A stretch of DNA of 64,000 bases, from positions 288,001 through 352,000 of the forward strand of contig CAWBWI010000003.1 of assembly GCA_963792585.1 (NCBI GenBank), in the 5' to 3' direction. This document shows, one piece after another, positions 28,640 to 43,442 of this stretch. Numbering within the stretch: the stretch's first letter is position 1; each line of letters starts with the position of its first letter. The translations under genes were made by a program, and so were the position numbers. This DNA is from Candidatus Eiseniibacteriota bacterium. GTDB lineage: Bacteria > Eisenbacteria > RBG-16-71-46 > CAIMUX01 > VGJL01. The notes under the pieces were generated by a model, which saw only the letters and a list, made by a program, of their open reading frames with translations, was not told where the DNA came from and ran no database searches.

Positions 28640-31600
28640 ATGATCGAACGGATCATCGAATTCTCGATCCGGAACCGGTTCGTGGTTCTCCTCGGCATGC
28701 TCGTCGTCGTGGTTTGGGGTATCTACTCGATCGGACACACGCCGATCGATGCGATCCCCGACCTCTCCGAGAACCAGGTGATCGTCTTCACCGACTGGAT
28801 GGGCCGCAGCCCCCAGGAGATCGAGGACCAGGTCACCTATCCCGCTCTCGGTCAACCTGCAGGGCCTGGCCGGCGTGAAGGCGGTGCGGTCGTCGAGCGA
28901 GTTCAACTTCTCGATGATCAACATCATCTTCGAGGACAAGATCGACTTCTACTTCGCCCGCCAGCGCGTGCTCGAACGGCTCTCGATCGCTCGCACCTTC
29001 CTGCCGCCGGGCGTCGTGCCCTACCTCGCCCCCGACGCCACGGCGCTCGGGCAGATCTTCTGGTACACCGTCGAGGGCGAGGGCAAGGACCTCGGCGAGC
29101 TGCGGGCGATCCAGGACTGGTACGTCCGCTACCAGCTCAACTCCGTCCCCGGCGTGGCCGAGGTCGTCGAGCGTCGGCGGCTTCATCAAGACCATGAGAT
29201 CGACATCGACCCCAACAAGCTGCGCGCCTACGAGGTCACGCTCGGCGAGGTGTTCTCGGCGGTTCAGCGCAGCAACTCCGCCGTCGGCGGCAAGGTCTAC
29301 GTCCAGAACGACGCCGAGTACCTGATCCGCGGCGTCGGCTGGATCCGAGGACTCGACGACATGCGAAACACGGTGGTCACCGACGCGGGACGGCGTGCCC
29401 GTCACAGTGGGCCATCTCGGCACCGTGCAGCTCGCCCCCGAGGCGCGCCGCTGCGTGCTGGAGAAGAACGGCAGCGAGGCGGTCGGCGGCGTGGTCCTGA
29501 TGCGCTACGGCGAGAACCCGCTGGAGGTCACGCAGCGCATCAAGGAGAAGATCGACGACCTACAGCCCGGCCTGCCCGAGGGCGTTCGGATCGTGCCGTT
29601 CTACGATCGCACCCGCCTGATCAAGGATGCGATCCATACGGTGACGCGGACGCTGAAGGAGGAGATCATCATCGCTCGATCGCGATCCTCCTGATCCTGA
29701 CGCACCTCGGCAGCGCCCTGGTCGTCGTCATCACGCTGCCGCTGGCCGTGCTGATCTCCTTCATCCTGATGCACCTCTTCGGCATCCCGTCCAACATCAT
29801 GTCGCTCTCCGGCATCGCGATCTCGATCGGCATCCTGGTGGACCCGGCGATCGTGATGATGGAGAACGCCACCCACGACCTGACCGCGGAGTTCGGCCAC
29901 GAACGGGTCCGCGGCGACACGCGCGAGATCATCCTGCGCGCCTGCGAAGCTCGTCGGGCGGCCGATCTTCTTCTCGGTCCTGATCATGCTGATCTCCTTC
30001 CTGCCGGTCTTCGCGCTCACGGGCCAGGAAGGGAAGATGTTCCACCCGCTGGCCTTCACCAAGACGCTTCGCGATGATCGGCGTGGCGCTGCTGGCGATC
30101 ACGCTCGTGCCGGCGCTGATCCCGATCTTCCTCCGGGGCCGGCTTCAGAGCGAGGAGGACAATCGGATCGTCCGCAGCTTCATCGAGATCTACAAGCCGG
30201 TGCTGAACGTTCCTGCTCCGTCACCGGACGGCGTTCGTCTGGTCGTTCGTCGTTCTCCTCGGCATCGGGTTCAACCTCTCGCGGCACCTCGGCCGCGAGT
30301 TCATGCCGCCGCTCGACGAGGGCAGCGTCCTCGACATGCCGGTCACGATCCCGAGCGTCGTCGGTGCCGCAGGCGGCGAGACGACCTGAAGGCGCGTGAC
30401 GCGATGCTCCGCACGTTCCCCGAGGTGTCGAGTCGGTGGTCGGCAAGGCCGGCCGCGCCGAGACGGCGACCGATCCCGCGCCGCTGGACATGGTCGAGAC
30501 GATCATCAACCTGCATCCGCGCTCCTGGTGGCCCAAGCGCAAGATCCGCTTCGAGGACACGATGAAGGAGGCGGGAATCCTATTGAGTGCCCTGCAGCAG
30601 CAGGGTGTTGTCCGGAAAGACCTTTCCGACGACGAGAGAGGGGTGCTTCTCAACGAGGCGTCCATGGCGGCCGCGGAGCGAATGGACGGAATCCTCCGAA
30701 CGCAGGCCCGCGAAGCGGAGATCGCCTTCACTCCCAACATTGGGAGCGATCTCGCGGCGACCGGTATGAAACGGGTCGTTGACATGGCGCGGCGACAGAA
30801 CGCGCTGAGTGCGGGGACCGATCCTGGCGTGATCAGCGGAATCGAAGCTGCGCTCTCTCGTAGCTTCGGCATGCAACTTGCGGTCGAGCCCGACGCCGTC
30901 GTTGTGAACCGACTCCTCGCCGCAGCCCGCGATTCTCTCGCGGCGCGTGGCGTGATTCAGACCCGGGGAGACATCTTCCGGCCCGAACGATCCCGGTGGG
31001 CGTCGCTCAGCGACCCGGTTCGGACCGTGCTTGGAGGATCAGCCCAAAGCGTCCAGGAATCGGCGCTTGCCTCGATCGAAAAGGCCCGCGAGAGGCTATG
31101 GAAGAAGGCGATGCGGGATGAGAACGATCGACTTGCCGACCGCGCACCCAAGGAACTCGTCGATGCGCTGACCGATGCGCTCACCGCAGGAGCGTCCACT
31201 CACGGCTTCGTTCAGCGTGACCTTACCGAGGCGGATCGCGAGGCGCTCTGGGGCCGGCGGGAGAAGTCGCTTCGCCGCGGACTCTTCCTGTGGCACAAGA
31301 CGAAGGTCGATATCGTGCAGGAGTTCGACACCGCTCTCCAGGTCCCAGGGTGGGGAAACATATGGACGCAGCCGATCATCAATCGTGTCGACATGCTTGC
31401 CACCGGCGTACGGACGATGGTCGGCGTGAAGGTCTTCGGGGACGACCTATACAAGATCCAGGATGTGTCGCAACAGGTTGCCGGAGTCCTGAGGGGCATC
31501 CCTGGCGCCGTCGATGTCTTTCCGGATCAGATCGTCGGAGAGAACTATCTCGAGATCGACGTGGATCGGGAAAAGGCCGCCCGGTATGGGGTGAACGTGG

Positions 31601-32619
31601 GAGACGTCCAGGACGTGATCGAGGTCGCCCTCGGGGGCATGACGGTCACGAACACGGTCGAAGGCCGACGTCGTTTCCCCGTGCGCGTCCGCTACGCGAG
31701 GGACTTCCGCACCGACGCGGAGGAAATAGGAAGGACGCTCGTAGCTTCCGGTGGGCCGGCAATGGGAGCCGCCCCGGCAGCCATGGGCTCGACGATGTCG
31801 ACCTCGGTCGCCCCGGGAGGGGGAACGGGACCGGTCCAGGTGCCCTTGTCCGCGGTCGCGACGATCCGGGTCACTCAAGGTCCCAGCATGATCAAGAGCG
31901 AGAACGGCATGCTGCGCTCCTATGTTCAACTGAATGTTCGGGGGCGCGACGTGGTCGGATTCGTCGAAGAGGCGCAACGGCTGGTCGCAACGAATGTAAA
32001 GCTTCCTCCGGGCTACTACATCGAGTGGAGCGGTCAGTTCGAACACCAGGTCCGGGCCAAGAAGACCCTCTCGATCGTCTTTCCGATGGTGATCCTCCTG
32101 ATCTGCCTGATCCTCTATCTGACCTTCCACGATCTTGCGCACGCGTTGCTGATGGTCTTGGCCGTGCCCGGAGCGCTCGTCGGGGGTGTGATCTTTCAGA
32201 AGCTGTTCGGCTTCAACTTCAGCGTGGCGGTCTGGGTTGGATATATCGCGGCCTTCGGCATGGCAACGGAAACCGGAATCGTCATGATGGTGTACCTACG
32301 CGATGCGCTCCACCGCAAAGGGGGTCTGGCCGCGATCAAGAGCGAGGAAGAGATCCGGGAGGCCGTTGTGCAGGGGGCCGTCCACCGATTGAGGCCGAAG
32401 CTCTTGACCGAAGGGGTCGCAATCGTCGGATTGATGCCGATGCTCTGGGCGCACGGGACTGGCGCGGAGGTCATGCGCCCGATGGTAGCTCCGGTCCTCG
32501 GAGGGCTTCTCGTCGCCGACGAGGTGATCGACCTCCTGATCCCCGTTCTCTTCCATTGGGTCGAAACGAATCGATGGCGGCGCATGAATGCGACGGCAGT
32601 CGCCGGGACGGACGTCTAG
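28640..32619 (+). pseudogene. cusA: CusA-family Cu/Ag RND efflux pump, multiply frameshifted between about 28840 and 30440 (pseudogene or assembly error)
   Basis: [101 protein letters not shown] are spread over different frames. Confidence 0.9.
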
Positions 32620-36008: not shown

Positions 36009-36872
36009 GTGCCGACCTGCTTCTTCGTCACGGATCTGCACGGTCATACGGATCGATATGACAAGCTGCTCGGTACGATCGCGGCCGAACGCCCCGCGGC
36101 GGTCTTCATGGGAGGAGATCTGTTGCCGAAGGGGGCGATTTCCCGTCAAAGCCTCGAGGTCGGCAACGCCGACTTCATCGATGCCTTCCTCATCCCCGGG
36201 TTTCGTCGACTACGGGAGTCGATGGGCTCCGAGTACCCAAGAGTCTTCCTGATTCTCGGAAACGACGATCCGCGCTGTGAGGAGGCGGCGTTCCTCGATG
36301 CGGCCGTCAATGGAATGTGGAGCTGTATTCACGAACGCAGGGTCGCGTTCGCGGGGTTCGATGTCTACGGATACGGATACGTTCCGCCGACCCCCTTTCT
36401 ATTGAAGGATTGGGAGCGATACGACGTTTCGCGGTACGTTGATCCGGGAAGCGTCTCGCCCGAGGAAGGCTGTCGCAGCGTACCGGTCTCCGCGGACGCG
36501 ATCCGCTTCGGCACCATTCAGAAGGATCTTGCCGCCCTCACCACCGACGCGGCGCTCGGTCGGGCGGTATTCCTCTTCCACTCTCCGCCATACGGCACGG
36601 TTCTCGACCGCGCCGCGCTGGACGGCAGGAGCGTCGATCATGTTCCACTGGATGTCCACATCGGGAGCATCGCGATAAAGCGATTCATCGAGGAGCGGCA
36701 ACCGCGAGTGACCCTGCACGGCCACGTGCACGAATCGACGCGCCTGACCGGAAGTTGGAAGACGAGAATCGGACGGACCGTTTGCATCAACGCGGCCCAC
36801 GACGGATCGGAGCTCTCGCTCGTTCGGTTCGATCCCGAAGACCCCGACGCAGCGACGCGGCAACTACTCTAG
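36009..36872 (+). CDS. Calcineurin-like metallophosphoesterase
   Basis: DLHG, GGD, GNDD, HSPP, HGHVHE motifs; GTG start with GGAGGA RBS. Confidence 0.88.
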   Translation: MPTCFFVTDLHGHTDRYDKLLGTIAAERPAAVFMGGDLLPKGAISRQSLEVGNADFIDAFLIPGFRRLRESMGSEYPRVFLILGNDDPRCEEAAFLDAAVNGMWSCIHERRVAFAGFDVYGYGYVPPTPFLLKDWERYDVSRYVDPGSVSPEEGCRSVPVSADAIRFGTIQKDLAALTTDAALGRAVFLFHSPPYGTVLDRAALDGRSVDHVPLDVHIGSIAIKRFIEERQPRVTLHGHVHESTRLTGSWKTRIGRTVCINAAHDGSELSLVRFDPEDPDAATRQLL

Positions 36873-36873
36873 A

Positions 36874-39800
36874 TCACAAGGACTTCATCGGCAGTTCGCG
36901 GGCAGGGTCCGTTATGGCACCGATCTTCACCGCAAAGCTCGTGCGCTGGGCGATGTCCTCATCGGTGATCAGGTGCACATCGAGGAGCCCATCCGTCCGG
37001 TAGCCTGTCCGCAGAAAGTTGATCTCGCCGAGGCAGTCGCTCCACCCCTCGAGCCACAGCAGCAACTCACTACGTTGCTTCTCGGTTCCGCGGAAGTGGA
37101 GCAGGATGTCGATGTCGCTCGCCGGTCCCGCCGTCGCGTTCTTGGTGCTACCGATCACGTAAAAGGCCATCACCCCGAATCGCGCGCCGTCCAGCTCCGC
37201 CGCAAGCCGTTCCGCGAAGCGAAGCCGCCACCGCCAGTGGTTCTCATTGCGACCGGACTCCTGTTCGGTGACCACGGCGACGTCCTGGGCGACTTGCTGC
37301 GGCGGTGAGAAGAAGGCAAGCGCCTCCTCCTTGTCGGCGTTCATGAGAAGCCGGAGGATCATCCCGTCGCTCACCCTCGGAATATCGATCACGCGCAGGG
37401 TGTCCGCGAGTCCGGCAAACTCCGGGAGCAGGTCCAGAAGCAAACTCGGCGCCATACGCAGGAAACCCTCGTTGAAGACGATCCCCTCGTCGTCGGGATA
37501 GAGTGGGAGATAGCGGATCTTCGCCTCCACGAGGTCCTGGAAAAAGTGGGTTCCAAACGAGAGATCGGGAAGGTAGTTACCTTTCTTGCGGGCGATCTCG
37601 ATGAGCGCCGCGGTGTTGTTGATGTCAGCATAAGTTACGTTCACGCCGAGCTTGATGTCTCCACGGCTGCCCCAACGTCCCGGACCCATCAGGATGAACT
37701 GGTGCTTCGGGAGGATCTTGTTGAGCTTGCCGACCGCGCGACCGACGGCGCGCAGCTCCTCTAGCGTCGGCAGGCGGTTGTACTGCTCGGGATCGATGTA
37801 GACGACATGCGTGATGTTCGGGACCATCCCGTTGGAGACGAACTTCCTCGCGGAGAAGAGGATCCGCTCCTCCGGCACGTCCCGCGGAATCACGGCCGGC
37901 GGGGCGGCGCCTCCGGAGCTCTGCGGGCGGCACTGGAGCAAGTAAAGGTCGCGTCCGTCGGACGCGAATTCGATGTCGACCGACGAGCCGATCTCCCGTT
38001 CGAGCAATTCCAGAATCGCCCGGATTTGACGGATGAAAGGTGTTCCGCCGACCAAACCCTCGAATGTGAAGACCAGCCGGCCAGGGTCGGAGGCTGCCTC
38101 GTTGCCGATTGGGCGCCGGACCCGATCCCCGTCGACGATCGACACCATGTTCGCGATCTGAGGAAGCTCGAAGCCGGCCTCGGCGAGGAAATCGCTTGCA
38201 TCGATTGTGTCGAAGGCGCCTGTCTCCAAATTGATCAGGTCGATCTTCTTCGGAGAGTATCGAACGATCTCGTCGAGGGTGACGTTGACCCGCAGATTAG
38301 GCTGGCCCGGCGCCAGCAGGACCGGGTAGTCGTCCTTCAACCTGTCGACGGCCCGGGTGCCGAGACCAGGCACGAGCCGTACCAAACCGTCCTCGCGACG
38401 GATACGGGCGGACCAGCGAAACTCATTGCGGCTGAAGGCGACGCCTGAGAAGGCGGGAAGGAAGTACCGGCCAACACGGGTGCCCACGACCTCCTGGATC
38501 AGAATACCCATTTCCTCATAGACGTCGATCAGGCCCCGCTCGGTTCGATACTCGATCGGGTCCGGACCGAACGTCGAGGCATATACCTCGGCAATCGCAT
38601 CCATCAAAGCCGTCAGCCGCTCCGGTTTGGTGCCCTGGTTAGCGAGAAAGAGACTCTTGTACTTCCCGCTGAAGGCCGCGCCAAAGCGATCCTCGAGGAG
38701 GCTGGAACTCCGCACGATCAGCGGTACTCCCTCGAGATCATCCAGAAGAACGGAAAGGCCTTTAACGATCGTGGGCGAGAAGTGAGAGTTTTTGAAGATC
38801 TGCACAATGTGGGGATACTCGTACCGGAGCTGGTCGATGTCCGCATACTTCTGGTTGTACACATCCTCGAGGTTGTTGAATTGGATAAAGTCGAGCAGCG
38901 CGTCGGTCGTTATATACCATGTTTTCGGAGTCTTGATACCCGCAAGAAGATCCGAGGCACCATCTGCCTTTCGGAGGATGTTCATTGCAAGAAACAGGCC
39001 GGCAGTCTTTCCCCCAAGTTTTCCCCGGCTCTTCGGGGGGAAGATCATTCTCTGCACCAGATCGTAGTAGTCGTCCACGGCAATCCAGCGTTTGGCTACG
39101 TCCATGTAGGCAGGCAGATCGGTGAAGAAGTGTTCGATCAAGGAGACGGGGAGACCCTTCTGCGCGGACGGAGGGAACTCCACCTCCTCCTTCGGGATGT
39201 GGTGGAACCGGCGGATGGCGTCGGTGACCTCGTCGAGTGACGCGTCATGACTCGCGACGGCATTGACGAGGAAGCGGGCCCGCTCTTCGCGGATCCACTT
39301 CTGGACGCAGCTGAGGATTTCTTCTTCGCCTAAACGGTCGCCGGCGATCTTGAATGTGGCATCGGTCAGCGCCGGAATATCGCCGCTCTTTGTGTATTCG
39401 ATCGGCCGGTTTTCATCCTCTTCTTGACCATCGCCGGGCCGCGGGGCATAGCCGACGCTGTGCAGCAAGTCGACGGCCTCCTGAATCCCGATCCAGCAAA
39501 GGTGGTTGAGCATCTTGCGCGAGATACGAAGCAGCAGGGTCTGGTCCGTGTGCTTCAGGAAATCGAGGATGATCCGCCACTGCCCCTTGGAGGAAGGGGA
39601 GAGCTGCTGCCGTGCCGTTTCGAGACTTTGGAACGCCATCTGCATTCTCTTGTGCGCAATCGCATAGCCGAGGCGCACGGAGACGGCGCTCAGGAGCTTG
39701 CGTTCTTCCTTCAGGAACGGGCCTTCGTCCGACTTGCTCACCTGTTCCTTGTAGAAGACTTCGATCTTCCCCGCCCGTTCCGCGTCAACGGTGAGGATCG

Positions 39801-40053
39801 TGCTCTGAACCCAGGGGGTCTCGACGAAGTCCGGGGATTGGACGACGAGGTCCCGGCAGGTGATTCGGGCGACGCAGACGTTCGGGAACTGATATCCGGC
39901 CGGAATGACCGCCACGATCTCCTCGAAGATCGTGCTGAGCGGGAGATCACTCGCCTTGAGGATCTCGTCTACCTTGAAGAGGCAGTCGAGCTCCTTCGTG
40001 CGCTCCTGCAAGGCGCGCAGGATTGAATCGATCGATGGTTCCGGTGGATTCAC
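36874..40053 (-). CDS. PEP/pyruvate-binding (PPDK_N ATP-grasp) domain protein with GAF-like N-terminus and C-terminal nucleotidyltransferase domain
   Basis: LGGKTAGL, VRSSSLLED..FSGKY, IQEVVG, GLGT, DIEFA, LLQCRP; GRWGS..SFGTHFF domain; C-terminal IGSTKN..SDIDI. Confidence 0.85.
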   Translation of the reverse strand: MNPPEPSIDSILRALQERTKELDCLFKVDEILKASDLPLSTIFEEIVAVIPAGYQFPNVCVARITCRDLVVQSPDFVETPWVQSTILTVDAERAGKIEVFYKEQVSKSDEGPFLKEERKLLSAVSVRLGYAIAHKRMQMAFQSLETARQQLSPSSKGQWRIILDFLKHTDQTLLLRISRKMLNHLCWIGIQEAVDLLHSVGYAPRPGDGQEEDENRPIEYTKSGDIPALTDATFKIAGDRLGEEEILSCVQKWIREERARFLVNAVASHDASLDEVTDAIRRFHHIPKEEVEFPPSAQKGLPVSLIEHFFTDLPAYMDVAKRWIAVDDYYDLVQRMIFPPKSRGKLGGKTAGLFLAMNILRKADGASDLLAGIKTPKTWYITTDALLDFIQFNNLEDVYNQKYADIDQLRYEYPHIVQIFKNSHFSPTIVKGLSVLLDDLEGVPLIVRSSSLLEDRFGAAFSGKYKSLFLANQGTKPERLTALMDAIAEVYASTFGPDPIEYRTERGLIDVYEEMGILIQEVVGTRVGRYFLPAFSGVAFSRNEFRWSARIRREDGLVRLVPGLGTRAVDRLKDDYPVLLAPGQPNLRVNVTLDEIVRYSPKKIDLINLETGAFDTIDASDFLAEAGFELPQIANMVSIVDGDRVRRPIGNEAASDPGRLVFTFEGLVGGTPFIRQIRAILELLEREIGSSVDIEFASDGRDLYLLQCRPQSSGGAAPPAVIPRDVPEERILFSARKFVSNGMVPNITHVVYIDPEQYNRLPTLEELRAVGRAVGKLNKILPKHQFILMGPGRWGSRGDIKLGVNVTYADINNTAALIEIARKKGNYLPDLSFGTHFFQDLVEAKIRYLPLYPDDEGIVFNEGFLRMAPSLLLDLLPEFAGLADTLRVIDIPRVSDGMILRLLMNADKEEALAFFSPPQQVAQDVAVVTEQESGRNENHWRWRLRFAERLAAELDGARFGVMAFYVIGSTKNATAGPASDIDILLHFRGTEKQRSELLLWLEGWSDCLGEINFLRTGYRTDGLLDVHLITDEDIAQRTSFAVKIGAITDPARELPMKSL

Positions 40054-41820
40054 GAGCTGCTTCCTCCGTCCGGATGGCCGATGACGCCGCGTCCGGTTCT
40101 CCCATCGACCTTGATCCGCAGGGGCCGCGTGAGTCGCACGTGGCGCACGTGTGGAGTCTCCATGACGAGGTCCTGAAGGTCAAGCCAGTCCCAGTCGATC
40201 GGGTGCCGGTCGGTGTGCCGCACCGAGAAGTAGAATACCCGGAAGCTCGTAATGTTGTGGAAGAAGTGAGATCCCTGGCTGGGGTCCGCCTGAAATTCCT
40301 GGTAGCGAGGATTCGACGATGGCCTTCGCACCCGAGATCTGCGCCCATTTGACCGGGATCCCGAGCCATGGATCCGAGCTGCCCCAACGTCCGAAGCCGA
40401 TCAGCAGATAGGGTCGTCCCGATTCGACGAGCGCCCGGTTCAGCCCCTCGATTTCGGCTGCGATCGTGCGGGTCACACTCGTGTCGAAGGTGTCCCGCCG
40501 CAGATAGACGATATCGGAGATCCCTTCATGGGAACCGTTTCCGAGGACGGCCGCGGAAGCGGCGAGATTCTCCGAGGCGTCCAGGTCCTCATCCGTGACG
40601 ACGATCTCTTCGCTGGAAACCACCATCGGGCGCATCTGCAGAAAGCCGAACCGTGCTTTCTCATTCGAATCGCCCGGGAGCGTGATCGCGAATTCGATCT
40701 CAACGGGAGCGTTGACGGCCTTCTCGGCGATTCGCAAGAGGGTCTGTAGCAGCTCGTTGATTGGATACAGGTCGAGGCGAATCAGCGGCGCGAAAGTCAG
40801 AACCCGAGGACCTTCGATCGCGGTCCCGGACACGAGTCGGTCGGAGGCCGCGTCGTAGGTTGACGCGGCGTAACGCAGGGTGCCGTCAGCCTCGGCCGCG
40901 GCCAGATCCAACTGCAATAGATACTCGGTCTCCTTGATCGGATCATAGGCGGGCGGCTTTCCCATGTTGACCGCCCAGAAGGACGTCTGCGTCTGGTAGA
41001 GAAGGTCCCGCAACGTGCCGTACGGTGGATTCGCGCGCGGATAGGTGGGGACGTAGTTCCACGCGAGCCCACCATCGACAATCGTCTTGCCCAGGCCCAG
41101 CGCGAGGTTCACCACGCCGTCCTTCGGTTCCGCGTGACCCATCGGATAGAAGTTGTAAGACCGCGCAACCCCGGAGACATCCGGGTAGAATCGCTCGTCG
41201 TGTCGCCGGCCGACGACCTCCTGGATGATCACCGCCATCTTCTCTTCATCGGCGGACCGGCCCGTCGACCGGATGTAGCTCTTGGCCTCCCGGAAGAAGG
41301 TGGAGGCCCAGACAAACTTGATCGCCTCGACGAGCTTGCGGAACCGCGTCTCGACGTCGAACTGGTTGTTTGGGATCATCTTCGTTTCGTACACGCCTGC
41401 GAACGGGTGCAAGAGCGCATCCTCGAGCTTGCTCGAAGAGCGCACGGCGAGCGGCTGATGGACCTTCTCGATCAACGCGCGCAGATCGCCGACGATCGTT
41501 GCAGGGATCGATCCCTTCTGGAAGGCATGGGCGATTCGGTCATCGGGCTCGTCCGAAGCCGCGATCGCCCCGAGGTCGTTCTCCTTGAGGAAGACATCGA
41601 AGGCATCGGTGGAGAGGACCGTGAGCCTTGGAATGCCTATGTCGATGTTCGGGAACGGAGACAGGTCCACATTCGATGAGAGGATCTGCTGGATGAATGC
41701 GAGTCCCCTCGCCTTGCCCCCAAGAGAGCCGGCTCCGATGACCGTGAAGTCCTCGGTCGAATCGAAAAAGGCGCGTTCGAACCGAGGGAATGCTTCCCCG
41801 TCTATCCGATCGCCCGGCAC
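40050..41820 (-). CDS. Second PEP/pyruvate-binding (PPDK_N) domain protein, one frameshift near 40295
   Basis: LGGKARGL, VRSSSKLED..FAGVY, IQEVVG, GLGKT, EIEFA, LQMRP, GRWGS; the conserved PSQGSHFF tail continues in the 40050..40331 frame. Confidence 0.82.
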
Positions 41821-41857
41821 CGGCTCCCTCCCCGGCTTACGCAGTCTCCGACAAACG

Positions 41858-43144
41858 CTAGATCCAACCGCGTTCGTGGCAGGCCCGCGCGACCCGACCG
41901 ATCGCGATCACGTAGGCCGCGTCCCTCATATAGAGCTTCTGCTTGCGAGCAAGATCGCTGACGGCGAGGAATGCGGAAGTCATCTTGACATCGAGCTTGC
42001 CGAGCACCTCGTCCTTCTCCCAGTAATAGTTCATATTGCTCTGGACCTGCTCGAAGTAGCTACATGTGACCCCTCCCGCATTGGCGAGGAAGTCGGGGAT
42101 CAAGAAGATCCCGCGTTCCTGGATCACTTTGTCGGCGTCGGGCGTCGTGGGACCGTTCGCGCCTTCTGCGATCATCCGGACGTTCTTGTGAATCTTCGTG
42201 ACGCTGTCGACCGTGATCTGGTTCTCGAGCGCCGCCGGAATCAGGAGTTCCACGTCCTGCTCGATCCAGGCGTCGCCCGGCAATACGTCGTAGCCGAGAC
42301 CGCGCGCCTTGTCCTTGTCGATGCCGCCGAAAGGATCGGTGATTCTCATCAGCTCGTCCATATCGACGCCGGAGAGCTTGCGGAAGGAATAGGAGGTCTG
42401 ATCCTTCTGGTCCCACGACGAGACGCAGACGACCTTTCCTCCGAGTTGCTGGAAGAGCCGGATCGCATATTGCGCGACGTTACCGAACCCTTGCACGCTC
42501 GCGCGCGTCGAGGACGGGCTCATGCCGAGTTCCTTGAGCGCCTCACGGACCGTGAAGATCACGCCGTACCCGGTGGCTTCCGTCCGCCCCAGGGATCCTC
42601 CCATGCCGACGGGCTTCCCTGTGATGAACCCGGGGAACTTGCCGCGATGGATCGCCTCGAACTCATCGAGCATCCAGAGCATGTGCTGCGCGGTGGTCAT
42701 GACGTCGGGGGCGGGGACATCGGTCACCGGTCCGACTTCGCGGGAAATCTGGCGAACCCAGCCGCGGCAGATCTGCTCCTGCTCGCGCGGGCTCAGGTTG
42801 TGCGGATCGCAGATCACACCCCCCTTGCTTCCGCCGAGTGGGATGTCGACGACCGCGCACTTCCAGGTCATCCACATGGCGAGCGCTCGAACGGTGTCGA
42901 TCGTCTCCTGAGGATGGAACCGGATGCCGCCCTTGCCGGGTCCCCGCGCATCATTGTGTTGCACGCGGAAGCCTCGGAAGACGCGAACGGTACCGTCGTC
43001 CATGCGGACGGGAATCGCGAACGCGTATTCCCGGAGCGGCGCACGCAGGAGTTCCCGTGCCGCCCCATCGAGCCCGATGGTCTCGGCCACCTTGTCGAAC
43101 TGCGCCTGCGCGACCTGGAACGAGTTGTAGGCTTTCTCTCTCAC
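41858..43144 (-). CDS. gdhA: Glu/Leu/Phe/Val dehydrogenase, most likely glutamate dehydrogenase
   Basis: KGGIRFHP, MTWKCA, GGSKGG, DVPAPD, ITGKP..GGSLGR.EATG.G, QGFGNV, EGANGP, NAGGV..SYFE. Confidence 0.95.
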   Translation of the reverse strand: MREKAYNSFQVAQAQFDKVAETIGLDGAARELLRAPLREYAFAIPVRMDDGTVRVFRGFRVQHNDARGPGKGGIRFHPQETIDTVRALAMWMTWKCAVVDIPLGGSKGGVICDPHNLSPREQEQICRGWVRQISREVGPVTDVPAPDVMTTAQHMLWMLDEFEAIHRGKFPGFITGKPVGMGGSLGRTEATGYGVIFTVREALKELGMSPSSTRASVQGFGNVAQYAIRLFQQLGGKVVCVSSWDQKDQTSYSFRKLSGVDMDELMRITDPFGGIDKDKARGLGYDVLPGDAWIEQDVELLIPAALENQITVDSVTKIHKNVRMIAEGANGPTTPDADKVIQERGIFLIPDFLANAGGVTCSYFEQVQSNMNYYWEKDEVLGKLDVKMTSAFLAVSDLARKQKLYMRDAAYVIAIGRVARACHERGWI

Positions 43145-43442
43145 GATATCCTCCCTTCATCCACCTCCCCACCCATGAGCGGAAGGTCATTCCCACCTAT
43201 GAGTCTACGGCCCGGCGTAACAGGGCGGCACGCGGGATCTTGCCAATTCCTGTATTAGTTGAACTTGGTCACCGCAAGGCCCATCACGACCACAACCCGC
43301 AACGTGAGAGTCCAGGATACACCTTTGGGTCTCCGACGAGGCGTCCACGGAGTCGGTATTCCAGAAGGGCGGCGAATAATGCCCCTGGAGTCGTGGGTTT
43401 CGTGGGGTAAAACGCCCCGGCCTCCAGTGCGTCTCGAGCGGG

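Follow-up and report, generated by a model that had tools for sequence, protein, structure and literature searches.

Barrel-less dikinase-like proteins encoded beside glutamate dehydrogenase in a Candidatus Eiseniibacteriota bacterium: a possible covalent switch

Introduction

In the nucleotidylation cascade of GlnE and GlnD, nitrogen-related sensing is coupled to nucleotidyltransferases of the Pol-beta type, which serve as writer and eraser on a nitrogen enzyme. In Enzyme I-Ntr (PtsP), a swivel protein with a phospho-His and a link to nitrogen status, the input comes from a GAF domain. This study concerns a gene cassette with comparable parts in a stretch of 64,000 nucleotides, called the window here, from a Candidatus Eiseniibacteriota bacterium (assembly GCA_963792585.1, contig CAWBWI010000003.1, positions 288,001 to 352,000). 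A glutamate dehydrogenase (GDH) gene, gdh, is followed by the genes of two paralogous proteins, A and B, which have the ATP-grasp domain of pyruvate phosphate dikinase (PPDK). It was found that a convergent metallophosphoesterase gene is part of a conserved unit with these three genes. I propose, at a probability of about one half, that the cassette is a covalent switch on GDH that is controlled by a nitrogen signal and has the phosphoesterase as its eraser. GDH joins carbon and nitrogen metabolism, and a switch acting on it would matter there.

The closest precedent is VadK (Rv1127c), a truncated regulatory kinase of the PPDK type without a barrel, which autophosphorylates a His and interacts with metabolic enzymes (PMC13400623). 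A and B likewise combine an ATP-binding domain with a His domain in the absence of a barrel, and a metabolic enzyme is their likely partner. Compared by description only, they differ in that the VadK His was assigned by superposition on solved structures of PPDK and in that VadK controls the methylcitrate cycle (PMC13400623). The cassette also departs from VadK in its far diverged His domain, paired paralogs, GAF or receiver (REC) heads, nucleotidyltransferase, phosphoesterase, and GDH partner. With GlnE and GlnD it shares the Pol-beta-type nucleotidyltransferase, the nitrogen-related sensing, and the writer and eraser logic, but the target here would be GDH instead of glutamine synthetase or PII, the nucleotidyltransferase is a minimal tail of a dikinase-like protein, and the eraser is a separate calcineurin-like protein. 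PtsP resembles it in the nitrogen link and in the GAF input on a protein of the His-swivel type, but the phosphate here would come from ATP via ATP-grasp and not from phosphoenolpyruvate (PEP) via a barrel, and no HPr or NPr partner recurs in the cassette loci. A dedicated GDH-modifying cascade built from these parts was not found in print, in a search that lay mostly outside the subscription journals.

Protein architecture

The structure model of B (predicted local distance difference test score (pLDDT), 81) has five parts, namely GAF, a helical region, ATP-grasp, a His domain, and a nucleotidyltransferase. The ATP-grasp domain is PPDK_N in Pfam (E = 8e-55 for B and 7e-37 for A), and that of B is closest in structure to rifampin phosphotransferase (5hv1; Z 25.1, root-mean-square deviation (rmsd) 3.0). 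Residues K349, R448, E695, Q707, and R709, which I take to be the PPDK catalytic residues, are invariant together with GRWG, H836, and GS..DxD in 110 close sequences, a biased set of at least 58% identity. In aligned rows the catalytic Lys, Arg, Glu, Gln, and Arg motifs of PPDK_N were kept in 24 of 24 and in 27-30 of 30. The nucleotidyltransferase tail matches NTP_transf_2 (PF01909) with 21.8 bits against a cut-off of 21; G968, S969, D980, and D982 occur in 110 of the 110 close sequences, and all 54 of the motif matches have DxD. The Pfam and NCBIfam searches gave no match to a model of GlnD or GlnE, and the architecture differs from theirs. At the other end of B, residues 10-145 were modelled as a GAF fold (Z 13.0, rmsd 2.2, 123 residues aligned), to which the GAF domain of PtsP (3trc) matches at Z 11.2. 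The helical domain (residues 152-338) hit only unnamed clusters in the ESM Atlas, below 0.9. These results bear out a sequence-only reading of the window, which had described both paralogs as PPDK_N ATP-grasp proteins without a PEP/pyruvate barrel and the larger one as carrying a GAF-like N-terminus and a minimal nucleotidyltransferase; the conservation of the His and nucleotidyltransferase residues among homologs, named there as a check, was also found, together with that of the ATP-grasp residues.

The same reading held that A and B are not PEP synthases, and this is supported. Pfam detected no PEP-utilizer or TIM-barrel domain in either protein, the B model has no room for a barrel, the PEP synthase/PPDK family model of NCBIfam gave 48 bits against a cut-off of 598, and a Bacteroides thetaiotaomicron family member is cofit with korAB, as described below. 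All NCBIfam dikinase models scored under one tenth of their cut-offs. The likeness to rifampin phosphotransferase, PEP synthase, and PPDK lies in the PPDK_N catalytic residues and, by the model, in a His that begins a helix within a domain resembling a swivel, but A and B lack the barrel, the substrate domain, and the TSHAA motif (0 of 54 aligned rows) and fall far under the family cut-offs. The rifampin phosphotransferase model NF041857 gave 27.5 bits against 999, with a match limited to ATP-grasp and no central substrate-binding domain.

The His was kept in 222 of 226 profile rows across the subtypes described below, and the remaining four have a gap in the column. Modelled alone, the His domain reached a pLDDT of 93.5. 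Its joint top match was the PPDK carrier 2fm4 (Z 5.1, rmsd 3.8, 116 aligned). This Z lies under 8, the noise level of the tool, as do those for the His domain of rifampin phosphotransferase 5hv1 (Z 4.8), enzyme I (Z 4.7), RraA, and cyclases. The best matches presumably belong mostly to the swivelling beta/beta/alpha class, and by eye the order strand-helix-strand-loop-His at helix start-strand agrees with that of the carriers. On this weak structural likeness and element order, a phospho-carrier role may reasonably be inferred from the model, as distinct from a result. Fold class and element order agree with the suggestion that the G(T/S)HFF His superposes on the PPDK phospho-His; the superposition itself could not be shown, at Z 5.1 and a profile probability below 1%. 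A sequence search of the PDB with the His domain gave no significant match.

The phosphoesterase matches PF00149 with 34 bits against a cut-off of 21.5, and the metal-binding motifs DxH, GD, GN, H, and GHxH are conserved in 44 homologs. Its start was placed by a ribosome-binding site and homolog lengths. In the 44 homologs, GNDD replaces the usual GNH(D/E), and an insert, LKDWERYDVSR, is invariant; these are a possible partner-binding surface.

A second B copy in one genome (G060, L055:7248-10430) has eroded kinase motifs (KD for ED, GRWG lost) and an intact nucleotidyltransferase, and the B of another locus (L054) has no nucleotidyltransferase. The kinase and nucleotidyltransferase activities of B-type proteins seem to be separable. 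Very diverged paralogs of 555-580 residues without a Pfam match (L034:1776-3443, L043:1559-3235, and L177:4175-5914) lie near the cassette or other family genes, and the two that were examined keep GRLGS and TQGTHF. One B homolog (P0049, 1202 residues) has a duplicated GAF head.

Co-occurrence and synteny

I surveyed 151 genomes of the host phylum. GDH of the cassette clade, defined by at least 70% identity, was found in 45 of them, and all 45 have B. The total for B is 47; one of the two further genomes has a frameshifted gdh beside B, and completeness is 87% in the other. A GDH at 61% identity occurs in one genome that lacks B. Neighbourhoods were compared for 38 B loci, which came from 37 of these 47 genomes. 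All 38 have an adjacent gdh, of the cassette clade in 37 cases; A accompanies B in 35 loci and the phosphoesterase does so in 30, and wherever A is missing (three loci) so is the phosphoesterase. Linkage to gdh, for which the sequence-only reading had called for a synteny survey, is therefore strongly supported (45 of 45 genomes, 38 of 38 loci). Among the best 80 of at least 641 named GTDB matches, the GDH clade stands at 24 of 25 B loci, the exception beginning at a contig end, and the phosphoesterase at 14 of 25. The record titles of these B loci include Acidobacteriota, Bacteroidota, Ignavibacteriota, Phycisphaerae, Gemmatimonadota, Dehalococcoidia, Aminicenantes, and Chrysiogenia. No neighbour other than gdh, A, B, and the phosphoesterase recurred in 61 loci, and no barrel gene was among the recurrent ones. 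In nine of the 120 top homologs the protein is 1629-1648 residues long, and all four of those examined end to end are A-B fusions. A metagenome scan with B returned one short locus.

The GDH of the cassette keeps the catalytic motifs. Residues H115, Q122, H154, and W244 (also M149, C361, and Q366) are nearly or fully invariant in 55 members of the clade and rare in 48 other GDHs.

The only other copy of the B GAF domain found in the host genome belongs to the kinase of a gene run amt - porin - kinase - NtrC-like gene. This locus and all 20 others found in 30 relatives make up 21 non-B loci, in 10 of which the GAF homolog lies 195-1825 bp from amt. The amt-adjacent kinases have two architectures, HisKA with a sigma-54 regulator and HisKA_3 with a LuxR regulator. 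One further non-B locus sits within a gdh/dikinase-like cluster. The occurrence beside amt suggests, by gene context, a nitrogen ligand, and the GAF subfamily may be an unrecognised nitrogen sensor. In the host run (L173:4701-10101; G000 C3:849.7-855.1 kb), amt, a BBP2 porin, a GAF-GAF histidine kinase, and an NtrC-like regulator are encoded together; the grouping of GAF kinase, amt, and porin is similar in other families, there with a LuxR regulator. The run is possibly an undescribed ammonium-responsive two-component system.

Other subtypes and Bacteroides

Four subtypes with a common core were distinguished: A (core only), B, C (REC head, ~990 residues), and D (helical head). The C and D subtypes pair with GDH clades other than that of the cassette. 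A profile of the His domain finds 2504 cluster representatives at the 50% level. All 41 Bacteroides genomes searched contain a C-type gene, annotated as PEP synthase, which mostly sits between the two gdh genes or close to them; in four of the genomes it lies directly 3' of a gdhA type of 444 residues. Two further C-type genes were seen elsewhere. One, in the host genome (L174; G000 C1:1071.9-1076.5 kb), is REC-headed and convergent with an NADP-type gdh, both genes being frameshifted in the assembly; the other neighbours an NADP-type gdh in a record with the title Ca. Heimdallarchaeota archaeon (L155).

In 1996, Baggio and Morrison reportedly described one or more trans-acting genes downstream of gdhA in B. 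thetaiotaomicron, and a 3-kb fragment is said to have restored activity in E. coli. The gene order there is BT_1970 (gdh), BT_1971 (catalase), BT_1972 ('PEP synthase', 2973 bp, opposite strand), and BT_1973 (gdh) (PMC7366714). A locus was found in which this order is repeated and the gene of 2973 bp encodes a C-type protein, 44% identical to A. Since position, size, and annotation match, BT_1972 is probably a C-type member of the family. Like the factor of 1996, it lies downstream of gdhA (2.1-5.1 kb from BT_1970), but the catalase gene between the two is likewise downstream.

In randomly barcoded transposon sequencing over 523 experiments, the only partners given for BT1972 at r of at least 0.8 are korB (0.82) and korA (0.82) (PMC8121099, Table S3), and in the same source mutants of korAB and of gdhA cluster with genes of amino-acid biosynthesis (PMC8121099). 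The korAB cofitness places the family at 2-oxoglutarate/glutamate supply. As to the idea that the module acts on glutamate catabolism, these only genetic data, from a different subtype, point toward supply instead. In the two expression contrasts examined, of 11, BT_1972 is flat (log2 fold change, -0.07 and 0.15), and the two gdh genes move oppositely (PMC10994844). A strict requirement of BT1972 for GdhA was considered and has become less likely because no cofitness of at least 0.8 with BT1970 is listed. A family member in a tractable species already has a fitness signature, so that both the idea of a switch and the unexplained factor of 1996 are directly testable.

Proposed mechanism and alternatives

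Four things about the proposed switch are observed: its anatomy, the conservation of catalytic residues, the strictness of the gene pairing, and the occurrence of the GAF domain beside amt. In the proposed sequence of events, the B GAF domain would sense a nitrogen signal, perhaps glutamine, 2-oxoglutarate, or ammonium. ATP-grasp would then phosphorylate the His domain, with His836 autophosphorylated in the dikinase manner (ATP to AMP and Pi), and A and B may act as one complex. By prediction, the His domain docks on GDH, where it would hand the phosphate over to an acceptor; the clade-only H115 and H154 are candidates for it. The phosphoesterase would probably remove this mark. The nucleotidyltransferase could add a second, optional mark, a nucleoside monophosphate (NMP) on A, B, or GDH. 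The net effect may be protection of the glutamate supply, with assimilation on or deamination off.

Docking was assessed by co-folding B residues 340-918 with GDH. The score was 0.59 and the best of three controls 0.00; the runs agree on at least 77% of contacts and the partner pLDDT is at least 89. The tool rates such a co-fold as weak, as among 157 solved pairs 18 passed with scores of 0.60 or less, and both of the mismatched pairs that passed (2 of 215) did so with such scores too. The co-folding check proposed from the sequence thus speaks weakly for binding, and it raises the odds modestly because the pairing was already likely beforehand.

Several observations weigh against the switch. 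A is missing from three, the phosphoesterase from eight, and the nucleotidyltransferase from one of the 38 B loci; related genomes are not independent, and the co-occurrence counts ignore kinship. The C-type linkage to gdh is looser (11 of 20 phylum loci). Among the named non-B loci, within the best 80 of at least 641 GTDB matches, gdh stands at 29 of 55, a count that becomes 20 of 29 when only loci with full flanks are considered. GAF homologs are not beside amt in 11 of the 21 non-B loci, and 10 of these have neither amt nor the gdh/dikinase cluster nearby. BT1972 is a C-type protein and not an A or B ortholog, and gdhA BT1970 is absent from its listed partners at 0.8 (PMC8121099). As for the His domain, the best structural Z of 5.1-5.3 lies below the tool's noise level of 8, PF00391 was matched by Pfam in 0 of 83 cases, hhalign with low-diversity profiles gave a probability under 1% against 29 PEP-utilizer carriers, and Foldseek found no match at E 0.001 or better. 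Such misses in sequence and fold searches are no proof of differing folds.

One alternative, which I regard as rather unlikely, is that A and B act on small molecules, as enzymes of the 2-oxoglutarate/glutamate node. Their dikinase core would phosphorylate a metabolite or a GDH-bound intermediate, for example in an ATP-driven amination at low ammonium, or the nucleotidyltransferase and phosphoesterase would make and destroy a nucleotide that controls GDH. The closest structures are indeed those of small-molecule dikinases (rifampin phosphotransferase, as above), the invariant GRWGS loop is a conceivable site for a small anion, and the korAB cofitness fits a role in glutamate supply. However, no separate substrate-binding domain is seen in A, the sensor and receiver heads are swapped between subtypes, and the family is found with several GDH clades that are unrelated, and some of these work alone.

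Regulation by binding only is unlikely too: A and B would autophosphorylate and bind GDH depending on their phospho-state, there would be no group transfer to GDH, and the nucleotidyltransferase and phosphoesterase would act on A and B. This is the model proposed for VadK with methylcitrate synthase (PMC13400623); the weak co-fold with GDH agrees with it, and the clade-specific GDH residues could be a mere docking patch. The conserved phosphoesterase partner and the swivel-like His domain suit group transfer, although they are compatible with binding alone all the same. Ordinary PEP synthase or PPDK activity, possibly with a barrel in trans, agrees with the PPDK_N domain and the database annotation 'pyruvate, water dikinase' but is highly improbable, given the missing barrel, the absence of TSHAA from the aligned rows and of a recurrent barrel gene from the neighbours, the korAB cofitness, and the other host PPDK_N loci, which lie near PEP-utilizer carrier domains (C2 60 kb and C2 353 kb).

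The covalent switch may also be an instance of something wider, in which widespread ATP-grasp protein-histidine dikinases would control GDHs by direct phosphotransfer (here to a clade His), gated by GAF or receiver domains, with an NMP layer and an eraser, as a counterpart of GlnE/GlnD, and BT1972 would be the trans-acting factor of 1996. This wider proposal is tentative, and taken as a whole somewhat doubtful.

Layout of the locus and assembly errors

The features are collected in Table 1. As had been read from the sequence, gdh is followed by two paralogs, the second of which is coupled by GTGA: the TGA stop codon of A (40050-40052) overlaps with the GTG start codon of B, once an extra base at 40293 is discounted. 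The phosphoesterase gene ends one base from the B stop codon.

Table 1. Positions of the cassette genes and domains in the window
Feature	Position	Strand	Remarks
gdh (GDH, 428 residues)	41858-43144	-	both ELFV domains; cassette-linked clade; likely target
Protein A gene (~589 residues real length)	40050-41820	-	GTG start at 41820; ATP-grasp and His domain only
Extra base inside gene A	40293		without counterpart in contigs of three runs; assembly error
Protein B gene (1059 residues)	36874-40053	-	GAF, helical domain, ATP-grasp, His domain, minimal nucleotidyltransferase
B GAF domain, residues 10-145	39619-40026	-	homologs in sensor kinases beside amt genes
B PPDK_N ATP-grasp, residues 345-722	37888-39021	-	conserved K349, R448, E695, Q707, R709
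B His domain, residues 720-920	37294-37896	-	GRWGS loop, E819, S-x-G-T-H836-F-F; model swivelling beta/beta/alpha-like
B nucleotidyltransferase tail, residues ~936-1059	36877-37248	-	GS968-969, D980-x-D982
Calcineurin-like metallophosphoesterase (287 residues)	36009-36872	+	convergent with B; candidate eraser

As assembled, A is split into two open reading frames (40180-41820 and 40050-40331) in different frames. The motifs SQGSHFF and SFGTHFF noted from the sequence are both present, but the former lies in another frame than the rest of A. The base at 40293 is missing from the contigs of three of the four sequencing runs compared, the fourth having no cover at that point; one of these contigs is a 557-bp piece with a single other difference. 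SQGSHFF is in frame in 19 of 19 relatives' loci. Since the contigs of three runs lack the base and the relatives' genes are intact, the extra base is an assembly error, and the possibility that A is a pseudogene was rejected. Contigs of an RNA run (X16) that cover the locus are related ones (~95% identity) and are uninformative on expression.

Other genes of the host genome assembly (seven contigs) are frameshifted as well. In the window, a gene that looks like a CusA-like efflux gene (28875-32619) is broken over several frames, which fits indel errors in the assembly, as does another 1-base indel upstream of gdh at 43214-43216.

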